DNA of 64,000 bases from Candidatus Saccharimonadia bacterium (GCA_041907025.1 JAYRIB010000004.1:1223-65222); one strand, 5' to 3'. Counted from the first letter of the stretch, positions 11,218 to 38,315 are shown. The notes: generated from the letters alone by a model not told the origin. Made by a program: numbers and translations.

Positions 11218-11251
11218 AGGCCACCTATTGAAGCGGGTGGTCGCTTTTTTT
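11218..11251. terminator. intrinsic terminator (hairpin GGCCACC...GGTGGTC plus T7); it may serve both the minus-strand gene and a plus-strand sRNA
   Basis: Stem AGGCCACC/GGTGGTCGC followed by TTTTTTT. The stop codon of the 11250..11780 gene abuts it. Confidence 0.55.
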
Positions 11252-11780
11252 ACTTCAGTCCAAAGGCTTGTTTAAGGGAGGCTTCGCCGTCGAGCGCGCT
11301 GGCGGTTATGAGTTTGATTTCCTTTTGCAAACCAAGTAGTTTCTTGAGGCCACGCACGTAGTCGATGGGGTCGTAAGGGTAGACCCACAGGCCCTTGGTG
11401 TAGTTCACAAAACCCTGGAGCTTAAGCTGCGCTACCAGGTAGTTACGGGTTACCTTTTGCGCGTCGGGGATCTCAAACGTCACAATGTAGAAGCTGCCTT
11501 GCCATTCACGCGGTTTGGCGATGCCTTTTTTGCCTAATAAGTAGAGGTCGAGGTGGCGCAAACCCTTTTCTGTGACCTTGTAGAGTTTTTCGTGCTCGAT
11601 GGTGCCAATCGAAATAAAGCCTTGCTTAGTTAGCAGGGCGGCAGTGTCGATGATTCGTCGGCGCGCATTGGCGCCAAATAAGCTCAAAAGGGAACGGGCA
11701 GTGGTTAGCTCGTCTTCGACGATCACCCGCTTGCCCGCTATTACTTTCAGCACCTCAGCTGATTTGTTGATCCTTGGCAC
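11250..11780 (-). CDS. PaaX-like/wHTH regulator-like protein
   Basis: C-terminal WQGSFYIVTFEIPDAQKVTRNYLVAQLKLQGFVNYTKGLWVYP resembles the PaaX C-terminal domain (W.G.W.lv.f.iP...R.....L...GFG.l..G.Wv.P). Confidence 0.3.
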   Translation of the reverse strand: MPRINKSAEVLKVIAGKRVIVEDELTTARSLLSLFGANARRRIIDTAALLTKQGFISIGTIEHEKLYKVTEKGLRHLDLYLLGKKGIAKPREWQGSFYIVTFEIPDAQKVTRNYLVAQLKLQGFVNYTKGLWVYPYDPIDYVRGLKKLLGLQKEIKLITASALDGEASLKQAFGLK

Positions 11781-11924: not shown

Positions 11925-12000
11925 CAGGGTGTGGCGCAGTTGGTAGCGCGTACGGCTGGGGGCCGTGAGGTCGCAGGTTCAAGTCCTGTCACCCTGACCA
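11925..12000 (+). tRNA. tRNA-Pro (anticodon GGG), CCA encoded
   Basis: Acceptor CAGGGUG/CACCCUG, D-arm GCGC-AGUUGGUA-GCGC, anticodon stem ACGG/CCGU with loop CUGGGGG, T-arm GCAGG-UUCAAGU-CCUGU, ACCA. Confidence 0.8.
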
Positions 12001-12136: not shown

Positions 12137-15100
12137 ATGGCTCCCAACGCCACACCACCTAAGCCTACGCTTCGATCCAAACTTCACTTGCGACCCTCAA
12201 CTTCTCTGAAAGTGAGTAAGGCGTCTGTATTTACCCTCCTGGCACTTATATCCATCCAAACCGTCAGTAGTGCCTTGCTTTGGTACGCCGGTAAGATCAA
12301 GGCTGACAGCAGTAGCCGAGTAGTAACTACGAGCCCGGCAAGTAGCGTTACTACTACCGGCGCTACGCTCAGTGGCACATACGATTACCCCACAGATGTT
12401 ACTCAGCGTGGCTTCCAGTATGGCTTGACTACTGGCTATGGCAGCCAAGTGGTGGATGACAGTGTGATGACATACGTGGATACGGGTATACTGGGCGGCG
12501 TAGATACGTCAAGCGGTAGTAGTGGCTACGCTACGGATTCCACGGGGAACCTATACTTGACTCACTTTGATGACCACACAAGTGCAAGTGTGCAAAAGTA
12601 CAGTGCAAGTGGCACTCTTGTATCTGAGTTCGGTTCACAGGGCGCAGGAGACGGGCAGTTTGACACTCCGCAGGATGTTGCTTTAGACACGAGCGGGAAC
12701 ATCTATGTCGCTGACACTAATAATAATAGGGTGCAGAAGTTGGATAGCACTGGTAATTACGTGAGCCAGTTTGACCCACTTGAGCAGGGTAGTGGTAAAT
12801 ACATCGTAGTGACTAGGGTTTCCTTAGATAGTCTAGGTAATATATACGTTTTTGGACACTGGGATAGTGATCCGGGTATATCGAATAATTGGCAGCCAGT
12901 AGTTCAGAGGTATAACGCCAGTGGCGTGTTTCAAACCCAGTTAATCAACAGTTCTGGTACGGCAACTAATCAGCTATACTCATATGCGCAAAATACCGAC
13001 CTGACAACTGATACAAGTAATAATCTATACATTACTGATGCTTATAATCACCGGGTGCTCAAATACGACAGTAGTGGCAATTTCTTGGCTCAGTGGGGAA
13101 CAACTGGCGTTGCTAGCAACGCCCCAGGCCAGTTTAATCTTCCAACTGGCATCGCGCGTGGGCCTGGCGGGCAATTGTATATTTCAGATGGCGGGAATGA
13201 CAGGGTTCAAATCATCAGCCCAGCAGGGGATTACGTACAGAGTTGGTCAGACAATCAAATTGGGTTTCCACTTAATTTAACAGTGAGCCTGAACGGTAAG
13301 ATATACGCCCAATCATGGGGGGGTGCTGGAGGCTTGGTTGTTGGTACACCATCAATCAATGCGAATATCACAAGCCTCCAGTGCGACACTACCTACCATT
13401 ACCGTGCCTTTACTACTGATGCAGACAGTACTGAATACGGTTCAGACGCTACATTTACAACAGATGCTTGTACGGGGTTGCGTAACATAACTAATTTGCC
13501 CACGACCAGCATAAGTCAAACGGGGGCTACACTCCACGGCGCTACAGATTACCCACAGGGCATTACTGGGCGCGGCTTCCAATACGGGTTAACGACTGGT
13601 TATGGTAGCACGGTAGTGGACAGTTCGGCTGTAAACGCAAGTTTTGGCAGTAAGGGGGTAACTAGTTTAAGCGGGACTACAGCGATTGACCTATCTGTCG
13701 ATGCTAACGGCTATAAGTACGTTGCATATTATGGTGATCATGTTGTTAAGAAATATGATGCCTCCAATAATCTCGTGCTTCAGTGGGGCTCAGAAGGGCT
13801 TGGGGCCGGTCAGTTCGGTGGTATTTCTGGGATTACCGCTGCGCCGGATGGCTTTGTTTATACTACGGAGTATTATCTCCAGAATGGTGGAGATATTCTT
13901 TCAAACCCCCGGGTTCAGAAGTTTGACTCCAATGGAAATTTCATTACCCAGTGGGGTTCGTTAGGGTCAGGCGATGGGCAGTTTTCAGCTCCTAAAGATG
14001 TCGCTGTAGACAAGAGTAATAACGTGTATGTTGTAGACTACAACCGCGTTCAGAAGTTTGACTCCAATGGAAATTTCATTACCCAGTGGGGTTCGTTAGG
14101 GTCAGGCGATGGGCAGTTTTCAAACCTAAGTGGTATCGCAATTGCCCCAGATGGCTCTGTGTATGTATCAGACAGGAGTAATGCCCGTATACAGAAGTTT
14201 AGTTCCAGTGGAACATTTATTCTGAAATGGGGTCAGCCGGGGGGTATGGGTGATGGTGAGTTCATCGCCCCTGAGCGAGTCGGAGTAGACGGGTCGGGCA
14301 ATGTATACGTATTGGATTATGCTGGTGGCACATTAAGGATGCAGAAGTTTGATTCAAACGGCAGTTTCCTGGCTCGTTTCGGCGGTTATTTCTATTTTGG
14401 TACCGGACTTTCTGTTACGCCATCCGGTCAGGTATATACCATAGATGCAGCTTCCACTACAGACTACTACACATATGGTATTGATGCCCCTATCACTACT
14501 CTTACCTGTGGCACAGAGTACCACTATCGTCCATACGTAACAGATCGTGGCGGCACGCAGTATGGAAACGATGCAACATTTACAACATCTGCCTGCCCGC
14601 CACTTAACATCACCACAACTAGTTTGGATGATGGCGTGGTTGGCGTGAGTTACTCTGATCTCATTACGGTCGATAATCTCCAGGGTGGCGAGACGTATAC
14701 GGTTAGTTCCGGAAGCGTGCCCCCAGGGTTGACACTTGGGTCGACAACTGGGTATTTGGAAGGGATTCCCTCACAGGAAGGACATTATTTCTTCGATGTA
14801 ACAGTTGAGAATTCTGGATCAAGCGACACCGCGCAAATAGATGTTCATATTTATAACACAAACCCACAATTAAGTATCACGACTGTGGCTATTCCGGACA
14901 CCCAAGTCGGCGCTTCGTATCAGGAATACATCTACACCAGTGACGGTGTGGGTGATGTGAGCTTCAGTATAACTTCAGGTGCGCTACCAGATGGTATGTC
15001 TATTACCTCGTACGGCACGAGCGGGGTATTGTACGGTACTCCAACTACTCCAGGGACCTATACCTTCACCGTGCAAGCTCAGGATAGCCGTGGGGCTGGT

Positions 15101-17272
15101 GTCGGCACTGATACACAGGAGTACTCCATAACGGTCTCGGCGGCTAGTATTAATATCACTACTACCAGCTTGCCGTCAGGTCTAGTGGGCTTGCCATACA
15201 ATAAAAGTATCGATTATGAGTCTGCTAACGCTCAGCCGGTCTTTTCACTTGTTTCTGGAACTTTACCTCCAGGTGTTTCTCTAACCCTTCAGGGCTATCT
15301 GCAAGGCACCCCAACGCAACAAGGTACTTACGATTTTACGGTGCAAGCCGATGATGGTTTTAGTACGGATACCCAGGCACTTAGCTTGCTCATAGGGGCA
15401 CCGGCGGCAGTTACTCCTAATACGCCTTTCGTAAAAATCACTTCGCCAGCGAATGGGGGCTCTATTGGGGCTACAAAGCTTGACGTAGCAGGTATTGGTC
15501 CTGCAGGCAATAAGGTCATACAGCTAACGATAGATAATGTTGTGCAAGGTACAACGAATACGGATAATGAAGGCAAATGGGCATATCAAGCAAGTGGTCT
15601 AAACCCAGGTTCTCATACACTGAGTGCCACTTGGGTTCCGGGCGACGATGTGGCTTTTGTGCCGTTCTTTAACCCCGAAACTTTCTCGAGCGGGATTTCG
15701 GTGATAGATAATGCTAGCTTGCAAACGGTGAAGACAATATACCTCCCAGAATATTCCTTGGCATATGGAGTAACACTCAACCATGCTCGTACTAAGTTGT
15801 ACGCATATGGGGGGCAGCTAAACTTGGGAGAGGGTGAACTTACGAGCTCTGCACAGCTATGGGAGGTTGATCTGGCAACTATGGCTATCCGCACGGTAGG
15901 TTATCCAAGTATGCCTGCCCAAATTGGCTTTGTTACTGCAGTTAACATCTCGCCAGACGACACAGGAGTCGTCCTGCTGAAGATGGAGGGCGGAGAACAG
16001 GCACAACAGGTACTAATCTCACGAGTAGATTTACCAAGCTTCACACCTACAGGGACAGACATTCAGGCTGAAGCTTTAAATACGCCAGCTGTAGTTGATA
16101 GGTTCTTTGAGCTTGCTTTAGCAAGAGCTTACACGTACAGTACCGATTCACAGCAGCGCTACATGTACTTCTTGCTAAGCGCCCTCGATGACGCACCAAG
16201 CAGTAATGAAGTGGTTGTTATTGATACACTAGATGGTAGCTCGAGTACGATCGAGCTTGGTGAGGGGGCTGAATATATACCTAAGGTAATTCAGACTGTA
16301 GGAGATAGGCTCTATGTACTCACCAGCTCGCATCTCCTCACTATTGATGTCGTTACGGGAGGTATTCTGAGCGACATTACTCCAGGTTTCAGTATCGATG
16401 GCTCCGCTTTTGGGTCCGTTGTGTTTGATGTCCCCCCAGATGGTTTGACCGCACTGCTTAGCACATCGGGATTTGGTAACTCCACTACTGTTGTTAGTAT
16501 TGACCTTGCTTCGGGCCAGTCGACTATTCTTCCGAATAGTATCGAAACCAGTAGGCGGCTGGCTAGGGCACTTGGTAAACAAGGCCCTATAGGCATAGGT
16601 ACAACTAGTGATGGTTCTAGGCTATATATTTCATCTCAGGGCCTGTATATATTTGATATGGCCAACGGGGTACCAATTGACCTGGCTGGGTTGCTCCCGC
16701 CAGGTGCAGAGGCCTCGGGACTTACAAGTCATGACTACATTGCCCCTATTCGCCCTCGAGATACCATCGCTTTTACCGTTGCTTCTGGTCCCGTATCGTG
16801 TACCACTACCAACACCTGTCCACCACCGCCGCCTTGTGCTGTGACCAACACCTGTCCACCGCCACCACCGCCCCCGACTGAACCAGCCACAGTCGGCACT
16901 ACCAATCCTAAGACTCCCAAGATTGTGGTTACACCCTTCCCACCAGCGGCATCTGCAGCCTCACGCCTGGGGTGGTTTGACCGCGGTGTTCTGGCGGTGG
17001 CTCGCTTTGTACCTGGGCAAGCAGCCATTGGTTTTCCGTTCCTCTTGTTCCTGCTCTTGCTCCTGTTTGCCCTCTCCCTGTACTATCAGTCTGCCAATGA
17101 GGTCCGTAAGGACAAGCTTAACCGTCAGTTCCTCGCCAAGCGTAAGTCCATCCGAGCGCAACAAGACAACTTTATAGCCCTGGCCTCACACTATCTCAAC
17201 ACCCCAATTACGATTATTCAGAATGGTATAGAGGTGATGGAGGAGTCGAGTAGGGGGCCAAAGAGTAAGTAA
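12137..17272 (+). CDS. giant cell-surface protein (1711 aa): NHL repeats, fibronectin/Ig-like (He_PIG-type) modules, poly-Pro linker, C-terminal TM and HisKA-like tail
   Basis: N-terminal signal anchor; at least 8 NHL-like repeats (NNRVQKFDSNGNFITQWGSLGSGDGQF); repeated modules TGATLSGTYDYPTDVTQRGFQYGLTTGYGS and CDTTYHYRAFTTDADSTEYGSDATFTTDAC; four He_PIG-like Ig modules (TLPPG..L...G.L.GTPT..GTY.FTV); TTNTCPPPPP x2; TM FPFLLFLLLLLFALSL; C-terminal FIALASHYLNTPITIIQNGIEVMEE. Confidence 0.8.
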   Translation: MAPNATPPKPTLRSKLHLRPSTSLKVSKASVFTLLALISIQTVSSALLWYAGKIKADSSSRVVTTSPASSVTTTGATLSGTYDYPTDVTQRGFQYGLTTGYGSQVVDDSVMTYVDTGILGGVDTSSGSSGYATDSTGNLYLTHFDDHTSASVQKYSASGTLVSEFGSQGAGDGQFDTPQDVALDTSGNIYVADTNNNRVQKLDSTGNYVSQFDPLEQGSGKYIVVTRVSLDSLGNIYVFGHWDSDPGISNNWQPVVQRYNASGVFQTQLINSSGTATNQLYSYAQNTDLTTDTSNNLYITDAYNHRVLKYDSSGNFLAQWGTTGVASNAPGQFNLPTGIARGPGGQLYISDGGNDRVQIISPAGDYVQSWSDNQIGFPLNLTVSLNGKIYAQSWGGAGGLVVGTPSINANITSLQCDTTYHYRAFTTDADSTEYGSDATFTTDACTGLRNITNLPTTSISQTGATLHGATDYPQGITGRGFQYGLTTGYGSTVVDSSAVNASFGSKGVTSLSGTTAIDLSVDANGYKYVAYYGDHVVKKYDASNNLVLQWGSEGLGAGQFGGISGITAAPDGFVYTTEYYLQNGGDILSNPRVQKFDSNGNFITQWGSLGSGDGQFSAPKDVAVDKSNNVYVVDYNRVQKFDSNGNFITQWGSLGSGDGQFSNLSGIAIAPDGSVYVSDRSNARIQKFSSSGTFILKWGQPGGMGDGEFIAPERVGVDGSGNVYVLDYAGGTLRMQKFDSNGSFLARFGGYFYFGTGLSVTPSGQVYTIDAASTTDYYTYGIDAPITTLTCGTEYHYRPYVTDRGGTQYGNDATFTTSACPPLNITTTSLDDGVVGVSYSDLITVDNLQGGETYTVSSGSVPPGLTLGSTTGYLEGIPSQEGHYFFDVTVENSGSSDTAQIDVHIYNTNPQLSITTVAIPDTQVGASYQEYIYTSDGVGDVSFSITSGALPDGMSITSYGTSGVLYGTPTTPGTYTFTVQAQDSRGAGVGTDTQEYSITVSAASINITTTSLPSGLVGLPYNKSIDYESANAQPVFSLVSGTLPPGVSLTLQGYLQGTPTQQGTYDFTVQADDGFSTDTQALSLLIGAPAAVTPNTPFVKITSPANGGSIGATKLDVAGIGPAGNKVIQLTIDNVVQGTTNTDNEGKWAYQASGLNPGSHTLSATWVPGDDVAFVPFFNPETFSSGISVIDNASLQTVKTIYLPEYSLAYGVTLNHARTKLYAYGGQLNLGEGELTSSAQLWEVDLATMAIRTVGYPSMPAQIGFVTAVNISPDDTGVVLLKMEGGEQAQQVLISRVDLPSFTPTGTDIQAEALNTPAVVDRFFELALARAYTYSTDSQQRYMYFLLSALDDAPSSNEVVVIDTLDGSSSTIELGEGAEYIPKVIQTVGDRLYVLTSSHLLTIDVVTGGILSDITPGFSIDGSAFGSVVFDVPPDGLTALLSTSGFGNSTTVVSIDLASGQSTILPNSIETSRRLARALGKQGPIGIGTTSDGSRLYISSQGLYIFDMANGVPIDLAGLLPPGAEASGLTSHDYIAPIRPRDTIAFTVASGPVSCTTTNTCPPPPPCAVTNTCPPPPPPPTEPATVGTTNPKTPKIVVTPFPPAASAASRLGWFDRGVLAVARFVPGQAAIGFPFLLFLLLLLFALSLYYQSANEVRKDKLNRQFLAKRKSIRAQQDNFIALASHYLNTPITIIQNGIEVMEESSRGPKSK

Positions 17273-17542
17273 CTTATGCTCGCATGGTGGTGCCCAGAAA
17301 GGTATAATAAGTGGCGAAAGAATCCATATGCGAGCAAAAACACTTTTTCTCATTATGATCATCACAACCTACGGGTATTACCTGCACACTATGTCGGGCG
17401 CCGTGCAGCGCCAAGCAGACGGCCTTATGCGCCAATATAACGCGGCGTTAATAACTGCCAGCGAAACAGCCGATTATTCCGCGCCGAACAATCTAGTAGT
17501 TCAAAAACCAACAGCTAACTAACAGGTAGGGCAAACAATAGT

Positions 17543-32146: not shown

Positions 32147-32524
32147 GGGGCTGACCAGCTTCGACGTTGGATTCTTGACATATAACTGCAAGCCGCCTGA
32201 TCGACGTTACAGATCAATCACAATAAGTGCAAACACTTTTGTTAGCAAAGTAAAAGCTGCTTTTAGCATGCCAAGCTTTGCGCCAGCTTACGCCTAAAAA
32301 CGTTCGCCGCCTATTGCGCCTGACATCAGATGAAGCGCAGGGCGTCACAGTATCTGGTTGCTTAGCTATCGTTCTATCCGGTAGCTCCTAAGACGCAGAA
32401 TAGAGGAGTGATGAGTATGTTTGGCTCGCTTTAAGTGCCTGTACCTCCCAAAACAACCACCAAGCAAGCTAAGCTTGTAGTACGTTATAGAGACAGACTA
32501 GCGGACCAGGGTGCGATTCCCTGC
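32147..32524 (+). ncRNA. ssrA: tmRNA (SsrA)
   Basis: 5' GGGGCUGACCAGCUUCGACG matches the tmRNA 5' consensus GGGGCUGAUUCUGGAUUCGACG. The 3' end GGACCAGGGUGCGAUUCCCUGCAGCUCCACCA is the tRNA-like T-arm/acceptor/CCA. Candidate tag ORF GCA AAC ... GCC TAA at 32229-32297 (ANTFVSKVKAAFSMPSFAPAYA*); its frame is uncertain. TATAGT -10 at 32131-32136. Confidence 0.8.
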
Positions 32525-32542
32525 AGCTCCACCAAAGCTCTT

Positions 32543-36292: not shown

Positions 36293-37480
36293 ATGTTGCC
36301 AGTAACTAGGGGCACAATTGATAACTTGCAGCAATCAGTCGATCAAACGTCTGAAGCGCTGGATAGTTATGCCCAAAAGCAGCCTAAGCAGGCCGAGGAG
36401 CTCAGAGAGCACATAACTGCTATGGCCAAGATAGTAGGTGGGTTGTCGGCCAAGATTAATGCTGTTGATAGGCTGGGTGAGAAGAATTACTTTATACCAG
36501 ATCCTAAGAACCCACTGCTGAGCGCGGCTTTCTTGGCGCCTGTACTTATCTTGATGGTAGTAGTTACCGTCTCAATCTGGTTATTTAACTTGGCAGGCTT
36601 ATTGGGCTCAGACATCATCTATATTGTTACTCTAGGGGTGGGCTTGCTTCTGGTTATGCAGGTGTTGGTGAGCAACATTCGCAACCTACAGCTCCGTCGG
36701 CGGATCGCCAAGCAGTCAGGCACTGCGATTAACGAGGAGCTGCAGCTTGAGCACGCTCGGGCGGAGTTCTTCAAGGCTGCCACCGATGAGTTGCAGGGGC
36801 ATTTGTTTGCGATAACTTCGGCGATCCCACGGGGGAGCGACCCTGCAATCGATGACGCGGCTCAACGGCTTATTACACTCCTTGATCGTATGGCTCTGAT
36901 TTCAACGCTAACAAACCGCGGCGCCGACTACGTGCTCAATACCGAGCCTGTTGATATGCCTGTGTTACTTTCGCAGATCATAGCTAATAGTCATACTCAG
37001 GCTCAGGCGGCGGGGGTACAGGTGAAGCTTGATGCTCCTAAGCAGCTCACCTACGAACTCGACCCACTTTTGCTCACCCAGGCTATCTCCCCAGTGCTGG
37101 ACAACGCTATCAAGTTTTCAAAGGACGCTCAGGCTGGCGGTCGAGTTCTGGTGGCATTAAAGCCAATACATCGTGGTTTTGAGCTCAAAATTGCTGATAA
37201 TGGTCCAGGCATTAGTCTTGAGCGTAGATCCCAGCTGTTTAAGCCATTCTCGCGAGGCGAAGACGCGCTACGCTTTAATTACGAAGGCGCCGGGCTTGGG
37301 CTTTACCTTACGAGCCTCGCAACAGGCCTCCTGGGGGCGTACGTGGAAATTGGTAATCCCAAGGCAGGGACTGAAATTATCTGGAGGTTTGATTCTCTGG
37401 TGCCAACCTCGCCTGAACAGTCTAGGGCTAAGCCTGGGCACAAACCAGCTCACAATACGCTTTCTCCTGCAGCGCACTAA
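36293..37480 (+). CDS. sensor histidine kinase (two TM helices, HisKA plus HATPase_c)
   Basis: Two TM helices, H-box region ...ELQGHLFAITSAI..., and ATP-binding motifs DNGPGISLERRSQLFKPFSRG and GAGLGLYLTS. Confidence 0.7.
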   Translation: MLPVTRGTIDNLQQSVDQTSEALDSYAQKQPKQAEELREHITAMAKIVGGLSAKINAVDRLGEKNYFIPDPKNPLLSAAFLAPVLILMVVVTVSIWLFNLAGLLGSDIIYIVTLGVGLLLVMQVLVSNIRNLQLRRRIAKQSGTAINEELQLEHARAEFFKAATDELQGHLFAITSAIPRGSDPAIDDAAQRLITLLDRMALISTLTNRGADYVLNTEPVDMPVLLSQIIANSHTQAQAAGVQVKLDAPKQLTYELDPLLLTQAISPVLDNAIKFSKDAQAGGRVLVALKPIHRGFELKIADNGPGISLERRSQLFKPFSRGEDALRFNYEGAGLGLYLTSLATGLLGAYVEIGNPKAGTEIIWRFDSLVPTSPEQSRAKPGHKPAHNTLSPAAH

Positions 37481-37601: not shown

Positions 37602-38315
37602 ATGAGTCTAGAAATTAAAATTCATGCGGCCCAAGTGAGCATATTGCGTGAGCTGCTGTTCCACCCGAGTGCGGGGTTTGCTCAGCTACAACGGCCTACT
37701 GGCCTGACGAGCGATCACTTTACCTTCCACATTGGTAGGTTAGTTGAGCTTGGCTTGGTCGAGAGGGCCGCACGGCGCCAATACAGGCTTACGCAGCTGG
37801 GTAAGGAATACGCCAATAGGTTAGACACCGACAATAATACAGTTGAGCGTCAACCCAAAACGGCAGTGATTCTGGCCATTGAGCGCACAACGAGCAGTGG
37901 CACCGTGCAATATGTCTTCCAGGAGCGACTTAAGAACCCGTATTACGGCTTTTGGGGCTTACCGACGGGTAAAGTGCGCTGGGGTGAAACAATCCTTCAG
38001 ACGGCCGAGCGTGAGCTCCTAGAGGAGACGGGGTTAATGGCGGACTTTAGAATTGCGGGCGTGTACCATGAGCAGGTGTTGTCTGAAGAAAGTGGGGATA
38101 TGCTTGAAGACAAGATCTTCTTTGTGGCCCACGGCACAAACCCGCGGGGTGATCTGCTTGAGGAGTTTGAGGGTGGGGCGAATCAATGGTTGAGTTTTGA
38201 CGATGCACATAAAAAGGCCAAGAAGTTTGATAGCTTTGAGATGGAGCTTGATATTCTTTCATCCAAAGAGTGGCTGATTGAACGCAAGACACGCTATAGT
38301 GCCGATCTTTTCTAG
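37602..38315 (+). CDS. wHTH DNA-binding domain fused to a C-terminal NUDIX hydrolase domain
   Basis: N-terminal MarR/ArsR-like wHTH (...FHIGRLVELGLVER...) and Nudix box GLPTGKVRWGETILQTAERELLEETGL. Confidence 0.55.
   Translation: MSLEIKIHAAQVSILRELLFHPSAGFAQLQRPTGLTSDHFTFHIGRLVELGLVERAARRQYRLTQLGKEYANRLDTDNNTVERQPKTAVILAIERTTSSGTVQYVFQERLKNPYYGFWGLPTGKVRWGETILQTAERELLEETGLMADFRIAGVYHEQVLSEESGDMLEDKIFFVAHGTNPRGDLLEEFEGGANQWLSFDDAHKKAKKFDSFEMELDILSSKEWLIERKTRYSADLF

Follow-up and report, generated by a model that had tools for sequence, protein, structure and literature searches.

We report that two separate genes in the window, a 64,000-nucleotide (nt) stretch of DNA from a Candidatus Saccharimonadia bacterium, encode complementary parts of a probable split sensor histidine kinase. 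One is the gene for a giant surface protein of 1711 amino acids (aa) that ends in a transmembrane (TM) helix and a short tail bearing a histidine-kinase H-box; the other, at 36293-37480, encodes a 395-aa membrane protein, hereafter HK-C, that carries an ATP-binding domain. Sequence comparison makes it almost certain that both genes are halves of one ancestral gene and share a common origin. Furthermore, it is probable that their products are the two polypeptides of a naturally split sensor histidine kinase and that they work jointly, a reading supported by the finding that the tail corresponds to HisKA helix 1 only, and HK-C to a HATPase_c protein without HisKA. The acceptor and catalytic modules lie on separate chains, and the orthologues of the pair occur in fused, adjacent and dispersed form.

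The giant surface protein and its histidine-bearing tail

The giant protein is anchored at its N-terminus, extends through a long extracellular region and a stalk, and returns to the membrane near its end, with the following layout (open reading frame, ORF).

12137..17272, + strand: giant surface-protein gene, 1711 aa (ORF list, translation; Pfam NHL, He_PIG, Big_7)
12227..12292, + strand: N-terminal membrane anchor or signal-anchor, aa 31-52, VFTLLALISIQTVSSALLWYAG (hydropathy scan, motif location)
12293..17026, + strand: extracellular region of ~1580 aa (between the two hydrophobic segments; Pfam)
16802-16885, + strand: Pro/Cys-rich stalk TTTNTCPPPPPCAVTNTCPPPPPPP, within the extracellular region
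17027..17086, + strand: TM1 helix IGFPFLLFLLLLLFALSLYY, aa 1631-1650 (hydropathy; runs into helix a1 in AlphaFold2 models)
17087-17164, + strand: basic, K/R-rich juxtamembrane stretch directly after TM1
17165..17245, + strand: H-box helix, DNFIALASHYLNTPITIIQNGIEVMEE, equivalent to helix a1 only of the dimerisation and histidine phosphotransfer (DHp) hairpin (Pfam HisKA profile 2-30 of 66)
17189-17191, + strand: His1685, putative phospho-acceptor, in the H-box of DNFIALASHYLNTPITIIQNGIEVMEE
17246..17272, + strand: short basic C-terminus SSRGPKSK and TAA stop, the split point (alignment with the fused giant L016)
17270-17272, + strand: TAA stop of the giant gene

By Pfam, the ectodomain comprises two NHL beta-propeller regions (NHL repeats at E 6e-38, 5 stretches), three Ig-like He_PIG domains (E 4e-16, 3 stretches), a weak match to Big_7 and the stalk, while aa ~1170-1540 form a region with no domain assignment. 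A preliminary description of this DNA had recognised a TM helix, an H-box tail and an abrupt end to the ORF, and both the ORF at 12137-17272 and the Pfam matches agree with this. The tail is 61 aa long and the ORF stops 26 aa past His1685. The K/R-rich stretch at nt 17087-17164 predicts, by the positive-inside rule, a cytoplasmic location for the tail.

The likeness of the tail to an H-box is real, though it falls below threshold and covers half a domain. The Pfam HisKA model (PF00512, gathering threshold 26.9 bits) matches it at E 4.7e-4 with 20.6 bits, and the match is confined to helix a1, at profile positions 2-30 of 66; the tail alone scores 20.6-22.0 bits and so misses the threshold, and the complete two-helix DHp hairpin (a1 and a2) is not present in the giant polypeptide. 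The class I H-box has the consensus h-x-x-x-S-H-[ED]-L-R-T-P-L, and the window's H-box ALASHYLNTPITII aligns to that of the HisKA profile and of HK853, with which it is in register (FIANISHELRTPLTVI against FIALASHYLNTPITII). A PDB profile search returns the same register for HK853, weakly (E 0.2; matches E 0.2-0.8), and the NCBIfam PorY and PhoR models match the tail over their H-box regions only. In the fused relatives described below the HisKA match spans profile positions 1-61 of 66; orthologous tails therefore retain HisKA similarity, and the window tail is half of such a domain. Across the family the His, the Ser preceding it (-1), Thr at +4 and Pro at +5 are invariant or nearly so, with Tyr at +1, and the SHYL.TP motif is invariant in all members that have the H-box region (His in 117/117).

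As the preliminary description also held, no HATPase_c follows the giant ORF in any frame, judged by Pfam searches of the next ORFs and by tblastn of the relative P0016 against the window. There is none in the giant protein or downstream of 17272 apart from the only one in the window, that of HK-C. The next ORF (17328-17522, + strand, directly 3' of the giant gene) encodes 64 aa with a hydrophobic N-terminus (MRAKTLFLIMIITTYGYYL...) that bear no relation to the kinase and match no Pfam family.

The ATP-binding subunit and its fused relatives

The second gene contains what the giant protein lacks.

36293..37480, + strand: HK-C gene, 395 aa (Pfam HATPase_c, no HisKA; matches fused P0016 residues 380-637)
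36392..36475, + strand: helix a2, aa 34-61, AEELREHITAMAKIVGGLSAKINAVDRL (aligns to a2 of fused relatives; helical in the AlphaFold2 chimera)
36515..36679, + strand: TM hairpin TM2-TM3, aa 75-129 (hydropathy; AlphaFold2 chimera helices 178-200 and 208 onward; same in P0016)
36680..36916, + strand: second, degenerate DHp hairpin (DHp2), aa 130-208 (Foldseek against HK853, WalK, DivL, RetS)
36785-36787, + strand: Asp165, at the canonical His position of DHp2
37061..37393, + strand: HATPase_c catalytic domain, PF02518, aa 257-367 (N box at nt 37097, G1 at 37190, F at 37235, G2 at 37286)

Pfam finds HATPase_c in HK-C at E 6e-17 and no HisKA, with a variable N-terminus ahead of a2. Its orthologues form twelve clusters (56-100% identity, 388-423 aa) with identical Pfam content. 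The ATP-binding motifs are intact, namely DNAIKFS (N), DNGPGI (G1), LFKPFSRG (F) and GAGLGL (G2), and their key columns are invariant across 122 sequences; at the column equivalent to the His of DHp2 the residue is A, T, D, E, V or M, without any conserved His. The catalytic domain is therefore intact, and the sole conserved His of the family lies on the upstream hairpin. Neither the giant protein nor HK-C has a Hpt, H-kinase_dim or CheW domain by Pfam.

Relatives in which both parts form a single ORF of ~650 aa (P0016-P0020, 26-30% identity) reveal how the two proteins fit together. From the N-terminus they consist of a signal or anchor, Cys-rich CPNxxG repeats, a TM helix and KDNFIALASHYLRTPLTLM; a further helix, a pair of TM helices, a helical stretch and HATPase_c come after it. 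In Saccharibacteria, more than 100 proteins of ~650 aa bear the same H-box within one ORF, a search with P0016 returned 149 proteins at E < 1e-10, and a regex scan of the fetched loci found the fused form, with 360-378 aa past the H-box, in ~30 GTDB Saccharibacteria genomes. P0016, P0020 and their kin are annotated as ‘ATP-binding protein’, ‘hypothetical protein’ or ‘signal transduction histidine kinase’, and in family members the His lies on the first hairpin (DHp1). Fused giants also exist (L016/P0247, with at least 1613 aa in L016 and 371 aa past the H-box, and P0248-P0250), and across the family the length of the ectodomain on the conserved core varies from nil to more than 1700 aa. The members without a sensor (P0277, P0361, P0333) measure ~410-425 aa; P0277 and P0361 begin almost at TM1 and the H-box, and P0333 has no clear TM1 ahead of the H-box.

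When the whole window was searched with P0016 by tblastn only two matches were obtained: residues 246-296 to 17087-17239 (47% identity, E 2e-10) and residues 380-637 to 36626-37378 (E 4e-26). Together with the alignments, this equates the tail with TM1 plus a1, and HK-C with TM2 through the catalytic and ATP-binding (CA) domain of the fused family, with helices, TM segments and domains in like order. The fused proteins differ in being a single chain with a ~240-aa Cys-rich CPNxxG ectodomain, whereas the window has an NHL/Ig ectodomain of ~1580 aa and a gene that is split and dispersed. Judged from these alignments, the fused ~650-aa family is the direct evolutionary parent of the window pair.

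Structure prediction, in which all AlphaFold2 (AF2) models were of single chains, clarified the architecture of this parent. The model of P0016 (113-sequence alignment, pLDDT 84.6) has one helix at 228-298 that contains TM1 and a1 with His280, followed by a2 (304-329), TM2 (354-377), a helix at 384-457 made of TM3 and the second DHp helix, a helix at 463-484 and an alpha/beta domain at 495-641. Foldseek relates the C-terminal ~235 residues to the DHp and CA cores of HK853, WalK/YycG, DivL, RetS and further structures (E 6e-11, target TM-score 0.6-0.7), sharing the DHp2 and CA fold and keeping the N, G1, F and G2 boxes, which gives the family two DHp-like hairpins. A chimera of the window tail and HK-C (pLDDT 78.5, pTM 0.71) was predicted to have the same helix order with a disordered junction. 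The parent family is thus an ectodomain, TM1, DHp1 (a1 and a2, with the only conserved His), TM2-TM3, a His-less DHp2 and HATPase_c. In the literature on Saccharibacteria histidine kinases and on split histidine kinases, a paper on Southlakia genetics included, we found no account of this kinase family, its double-DHp architecture or a split within a domain.

Separation of the two genes and conservation of both halves

A word-indexed search with the last 120 aa of the giant protein found three relatives at 80-84% identity that end at about the same place. The orthologue comparison proposed in the preliminary description resolves into two grades: an intact kinase domain lies in the same ORF in more distant relatives, and in an adjacent gene in nearer ones. 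In L001 a gene for a 424-aa HATPase_c protein comes next, its start overlapping the stop of the tail ORF; class I aldolase, SmpB and ArgS genes lie beyond it, as they do downstream of HK-C in the window. This overlap is found in three lineages (L009/L010, L001/L015, L013/L014), where a giant NHL/He_PIG ORF ends ...ALASHYLNTPITIIQGGVE..., 18-21 aa past the H-box motif, and the final A of its TGA stop is also the first base of the HATPase_c start codon (TGATG). These giant ORFs measure 1983 aa as called in L009, or 2007-2171 codons from stop to stop (L009, L013, L015), and the HATPase_c gene of ~415 aa consists of a2, the two TM helices, the pseudo-DHp and HATPase_c.

The stop falls in the loop between a1 and a2, with the window reading ...EESSRGPKSK* where the fused giant L016 reads ...TLQRAPKSM... 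and runs on, and in the split clade the ATPase subunit begins with 40-60 additional, poorly conserved aa before AEELREHITAMAKIVGGLSAKINAVDRL is reached. Equivalent early stops are found in L001/L015, L009/L010, L013/L014, L100 and L101. The stop position is identical in the independent assemblies L003 and L004, which together with the equivalent stops rules out a sequencing or assembly error, and no remnant of an ATPase domain was found past 17272, where a check for frameshifts or assembly errors had been advised.

Gene order indicates which of the two genes has travelled. In relatives (blastn; L009, L015) the order is tmRNA, giant gene, HK-C, aldolase, SmpB and ArgS. In the window it is tmRNA (32147-32534), ~3.7 kb of other genes (DUF218, acyltransferase and others), HK-C, aldolase, SmpB and ArgS, with the giant gene 19 kb upstream of HK-C, at 12137, just after tRNA-Pro (11925-12000). 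The relocated order, in which the giant gene is followed by the 64-aa ORF, HIT hydrolase and BacA genes, is shared by the window, L003, L100 and L101, the 64-aa ORF being kept at the same place in the latter three. In the window, L005/L012, L007/L008 and L011, no giant gene adjoins the HATPase_c gene. By this synteny, the giant gene has moved away from HK-C in the window and in at least three other lineages. The tRNA-Pro beside the giant gene in the window, like the tmRNA beside it in L009 and L015, belongs to the classic hot spots of recombination and integration. The close relative L100 (6001-16990; JGI 3300007489 Ga0099920_10072) holds two tandem giant paralogues of 1908 and 1651 aa, both with an a1-only tail; this arrangement suggests that several sensors may share one ATPase subunit.

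Both halves are under purifying selection. In codon alignments of the window with L009, L013 and L015, TM and tail are 83-89% identical, the stalk 54-60% and the ectodomain 28-42%, and for TM and tail the proportion of non-synonymous differences (pN) is 0.09-0.13 at a synonymous proportion (pS) of 0.67-0.9, that is, with synonymous sites saturated. The DNA alignment with L003 and L004 likewise has the third-position pattern of a constrained coding region. TM and tail are the most constrained part of the giant protein, and the tail is still conserved after separation from its partner gene, as expected if both products still cooperate. Within HK-C, orthologue identity is 70% in a2 (aa 34-61), 72% in DHp2, 66% in the linker plus CA and 27% in aa 1-33.

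To judge how widespread such tails are, a profile of the tail was run with HMMER exhaustively over 1.84 billion representatives, giving 303 matches, mostly of the Saccharibacteria kinase family. These include ordinary members of ~620-690 aa, sensor-less members of ~420 aa, many fused giants of 1200-2160 aa, and seven 50%-identity clusters of giants that, like the window protein, stop right after a1. At least 25 further clusters of giants (~900-2100 aa) end ~35 aa later with a complete a1 and a2 hairpin (...THYLHTPLTVMEGEISLMVKAGT...AEAEAVLAQEE*), and the window protein is collinear with these over most of its length. L098 (1-13103; ENA ERZ27239183 k141_615015) has three overlapping tandem giants of this kind, with 1628, 1260 and 1700 aa (P0320, P0329 and P0298), each ending in a TM helix and a complete orphan DHp with the conserved His and no ATPase, cut after a2; L099 is similar. 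No kinase gene lies next to the sister-clade giants P0296, P0336 and P0298, which are followed by RmuC or tRNA-synthetase genes. Across these clusters, giants with putative orphan phospho-acceptor tails are a recurrent theme of Saccharibacteria, with at least two split points. A metagenome scan with the tail profile yielded four loci and no new split case: L091, L093 and L094 are ordinary fused members and L092 has no H-box match.

Several observations concern the neighbourhood of the two genes. Directly after HK-C, at 37602-38315 (+ strand), lies a gene for a NUDIX protein with an N-terminal winged helix (weak MarR/HTH matches); it also follows HK-C in L005 and L007, with a ~110-aa membrane ORF instead in L009 and L001, and it could be a non-canonical output or a mere neighbour. 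A PaaX-like regulator gene (11250-11780, - strand; Pfam PaaX_M) stands divergently upstream of the tRNA-Pro and giant-gene region and is also present in L100. The window also holds an RNase P RNA, two tRNAs and the tmRNA, whose tag peptide is unusually long at 22 aa (ANTFVSKVKAAFSMPSFAPAYA, ARAGORN).

Proposed mechanism, alternatives and significance

The complementary domains of the two proteins and their adjacent and fused orthologues support the suggestion, made in the preliminary description, that the tail is a truncated partner of the kinase at 36293; joint phosphotransfer is what we infer from them. In the clade of the window the ancestral gene was cut in the a1-a2 loop, leaving one product with the giant ectodomain, TM1 and the His-bearing a1, and the other with a2, TM2-TM3, DHp2 and HATPase_c. 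In the model we propose, both subunits would be membrane-anchored, the tail and DHp2-CA both facing the cytoplasm as the positive-inside rule predicts, and they would associate physically, a1 of the giant pairing with a2 at the N-terminus of HK-C. The DHp1 bundle would thereby be restored, probably in a 2+2 stoichiometry. His1685 lies 35 residues past TM1 and Asp165 36 residues past TM3, and with such matching depths below the membrane the two helices could hang side by side. It is plausible that the CA domain, held by the His-less DHp2, phosphorylates His1685 in trans, since CA normally delivers phosphate at the depth of the pseudo-His, which is also that of His1685. Isolated DHp and CA domains of EnvZ reconstitute phosphorylation in vitro. 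The trigger would be whatever the NHL/Ig ectodomain binds, plausibly the surface of a host cell, given the epibiotic lifestyle of cultivated Saccharibacteria. From His1685 the phosphoryl group would be handed on to a response regulator whose gene would lie elsewhere in the genome.

Several findings weigh against this joint kinase. Tyr follows the His throughout the family in place of the Glu or Asp usual in HisKA kinases; an acid at this position is not obligatory, since PhoQ has Ser there. No ORF with a REC domain was found in the 64-kb window by phmmer (CheY and PhoB queries); this search for response regulators took in every ORF of the window and of loci L001-L048, L052, L056 and L079 from Saccharibacteria, and one was near the kinase in two loci only, as a divergent neighbour in L052 and ~4 kb away in L028, so that by gene neighbourhood the family is largely an orphan kinase. 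The window is also the only relocated-type genome in which both halves have been seen together, and there is a large sister group of giants with a complete orphan DHp and no kinase gene nearby. Lastly, the HisKA score of the window a1, 22.0 bits by itself, becomes 28.1 bits and passes the threshold once the partner a2 is joined to it in silico (21.8 with a reversed a2 as control), and the profile reaches 27.7-28.1 bits only after the HK-C N-terminus is appended, but a poorly conserved ‘extra helix’ (aa 8-30) gives 27.8 bits and the total gain is only ~6 bits; the score therefore does not single out a2 and is supportive only. The regional identities within HK-C favour aa 34-61 over the extra helix as the candidate a2.

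As the sister giants demonstrate, orphan tails can occur with no partner gene beside them, and a role independent of any kinase may apply to them. It is conceivable, although we consider it unlikely, that the window tail also acts without HK-C, as a dimerisation or phosphatase module, as a decoy for response regulators, or as the substrate of some other, complete kinase encoded elsewhere in the genome, through DHp heteromers like those of RetS-GacS. The conserved Thr at His+4 is part of the HisKA phosphatase motif, the window genes are 19 kb apart without obvious co-regulation, and the sister clade, including the three tandem genes of L098, has a whole orphan DHp and no kinase gene beside it. 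Proteins of this general kind form a recognised class. An archaeal census lists ‘HisKA, no HATPase’ proteins, the ‘possible incomplete histidine kinase’ of P2CS, for which phospho-acceptor or phosphatase roles have been proposed (PMC5847659), and the window protein resembles them in that its sensor region leads to a HisKA-like C-terminus in which the His is conserved and an ATPase is lacking. The archaeal proteins, however, have cytoplasmic PAS/GAF domains, a whole HisKA and no identified partner (PMC5847659), whereas the window has half a HisKA on a giant membrane protein of a candidate phyla radiation (CPR) bacterium, and its fused and adjacent orthologues identify a partner. Moreover, one a1 helix does not amount to a DHp domain and cannot by itself make a bundle or a docking surface for a response regulator. 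The missing a2 is carried by HK-C and conserved as strongly as its catalytic domain, in three lineages both genes overlap start to stop, and no second H-box ORF that might serve as an alternative partner occurs in any fetched locus. With no His in its own DHp, HK-C would have no substrate unless the tail supplied it.

The other explanation offered in the preliminary description, that the giant protein is the remnant of a decayed sensor kinase which lost its catalytic half and now serves as an adhesin only, with a functionless tail, is very improbable. The protein does end in the middle of HisKA, below the Pfam threshold, its NHL and Ig-like ectodomain is adhesin-like and no ATPase lies downstream, but decay is largely refuted by the selection data: TM and tail are the best-conserved region, far above the ectodomain, at saturated synonymous sites and with an invariant His and SHYL.TP motif, which rejects decay and sequencing error alike. 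Furthermore, at least seven independent lineages or assemblies, along with the seven 50%-identity clusters, retain the stop and H-box, the tail is kept in both L100 tandem duplicates, and the matching catalytic half is intact and conserved. That the split is an artefact, with a frameshift, mis-assembly or programmed recoding masking one kinase gene, can practically be dismissed: the ORFs of the adjacent pairs do overlap by one base in different frames, but the window halves are separated by housekeeping genes, RNase P RNA and tmRNA over a distance that no recoding could bridge, the same stop occurs in independent NCBI, JGI, ENA and Logan assemblies, and the extra 40-60 aa at the junction relative to the fused form are not a simple frameshift.

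The joint kinase has partial parallels in two known systems that act in trans, CheA3/CheA4 of Rhodobacter sphaeroides (PMC3591291) and Hik36/Hik43, or PilL-N/PilL-C, of Synechocystis, whose genes are at distant positions (PMC7656254), as they are in the window. In both, the acceptor His and the ATP-binding domain are on two polypeptides, neither of which is a kinase alone. These are class II systems, soluble and associated with chemoreceptor arrays, in which the cut runs between whole domains (HPt/P1 against P3-P4-P5). The window pair is by contrast of class I, a HisKA cut inside the DHp hairpin between a1 and a2, lacks the Hpt and CheW domains of the CheA type, and has two membrane proteins as its halves, the His half being the 1711-aa surface protein. 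The Saccharibacteria family also departs from canonical HisKA kinases such as HK853, WalK and EnvZ, in which the His sits on the DHp that carries CA and is followed by Glu or Asp; here the CA-bearing DHp is His-less, and the His, followed by Tyr, is on an extra upstream hairpin across a TM hairpin.

Split histidine kinases are otherwise almost exclusively of the CheA type, cut between domains, and the case presented here would be that of a HisKA-type TM kinase cut inside its acceptor hairpin. All stages are present in public genomes, from fused and fused giant through adjacent genes with overlapping start and stop to dispersed genes, and this series amounts to a natural experiment on how far the His helix can be uncoupled from the catalytic core. 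The underlying architecture of a His-bearing DHp, a membrane hairpin, a His-less DHp and CA is widespread in Saccharibacteria and uncharacterised. A more speculative extension, which we regard as possible but doubtful, is a plug-in system in which several fast-evolving giants with a detachable acceptor (a1 or a whole DHp) share a single His-less kinase core and dock to it within the membrane. Were this true, interchangeable ectodomains would be read by one ATPase subunit through an intermolecular DHp bundle, a many-sensors-to-one-kinase design that has not been described for class I histidine kinases and that may be central to host recognition.

For the window itself, an otherwise uninterpretable ‘HisKA without ATPase’ protein gains a named candidate partner. 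Many giant NHL/Ig surface proteins end in signalling tails, so that giant ‘adhesins’ may be receptors, and host sensing by CPR bacteria becomes testable on a specific His residue and a specific pair of proteins.

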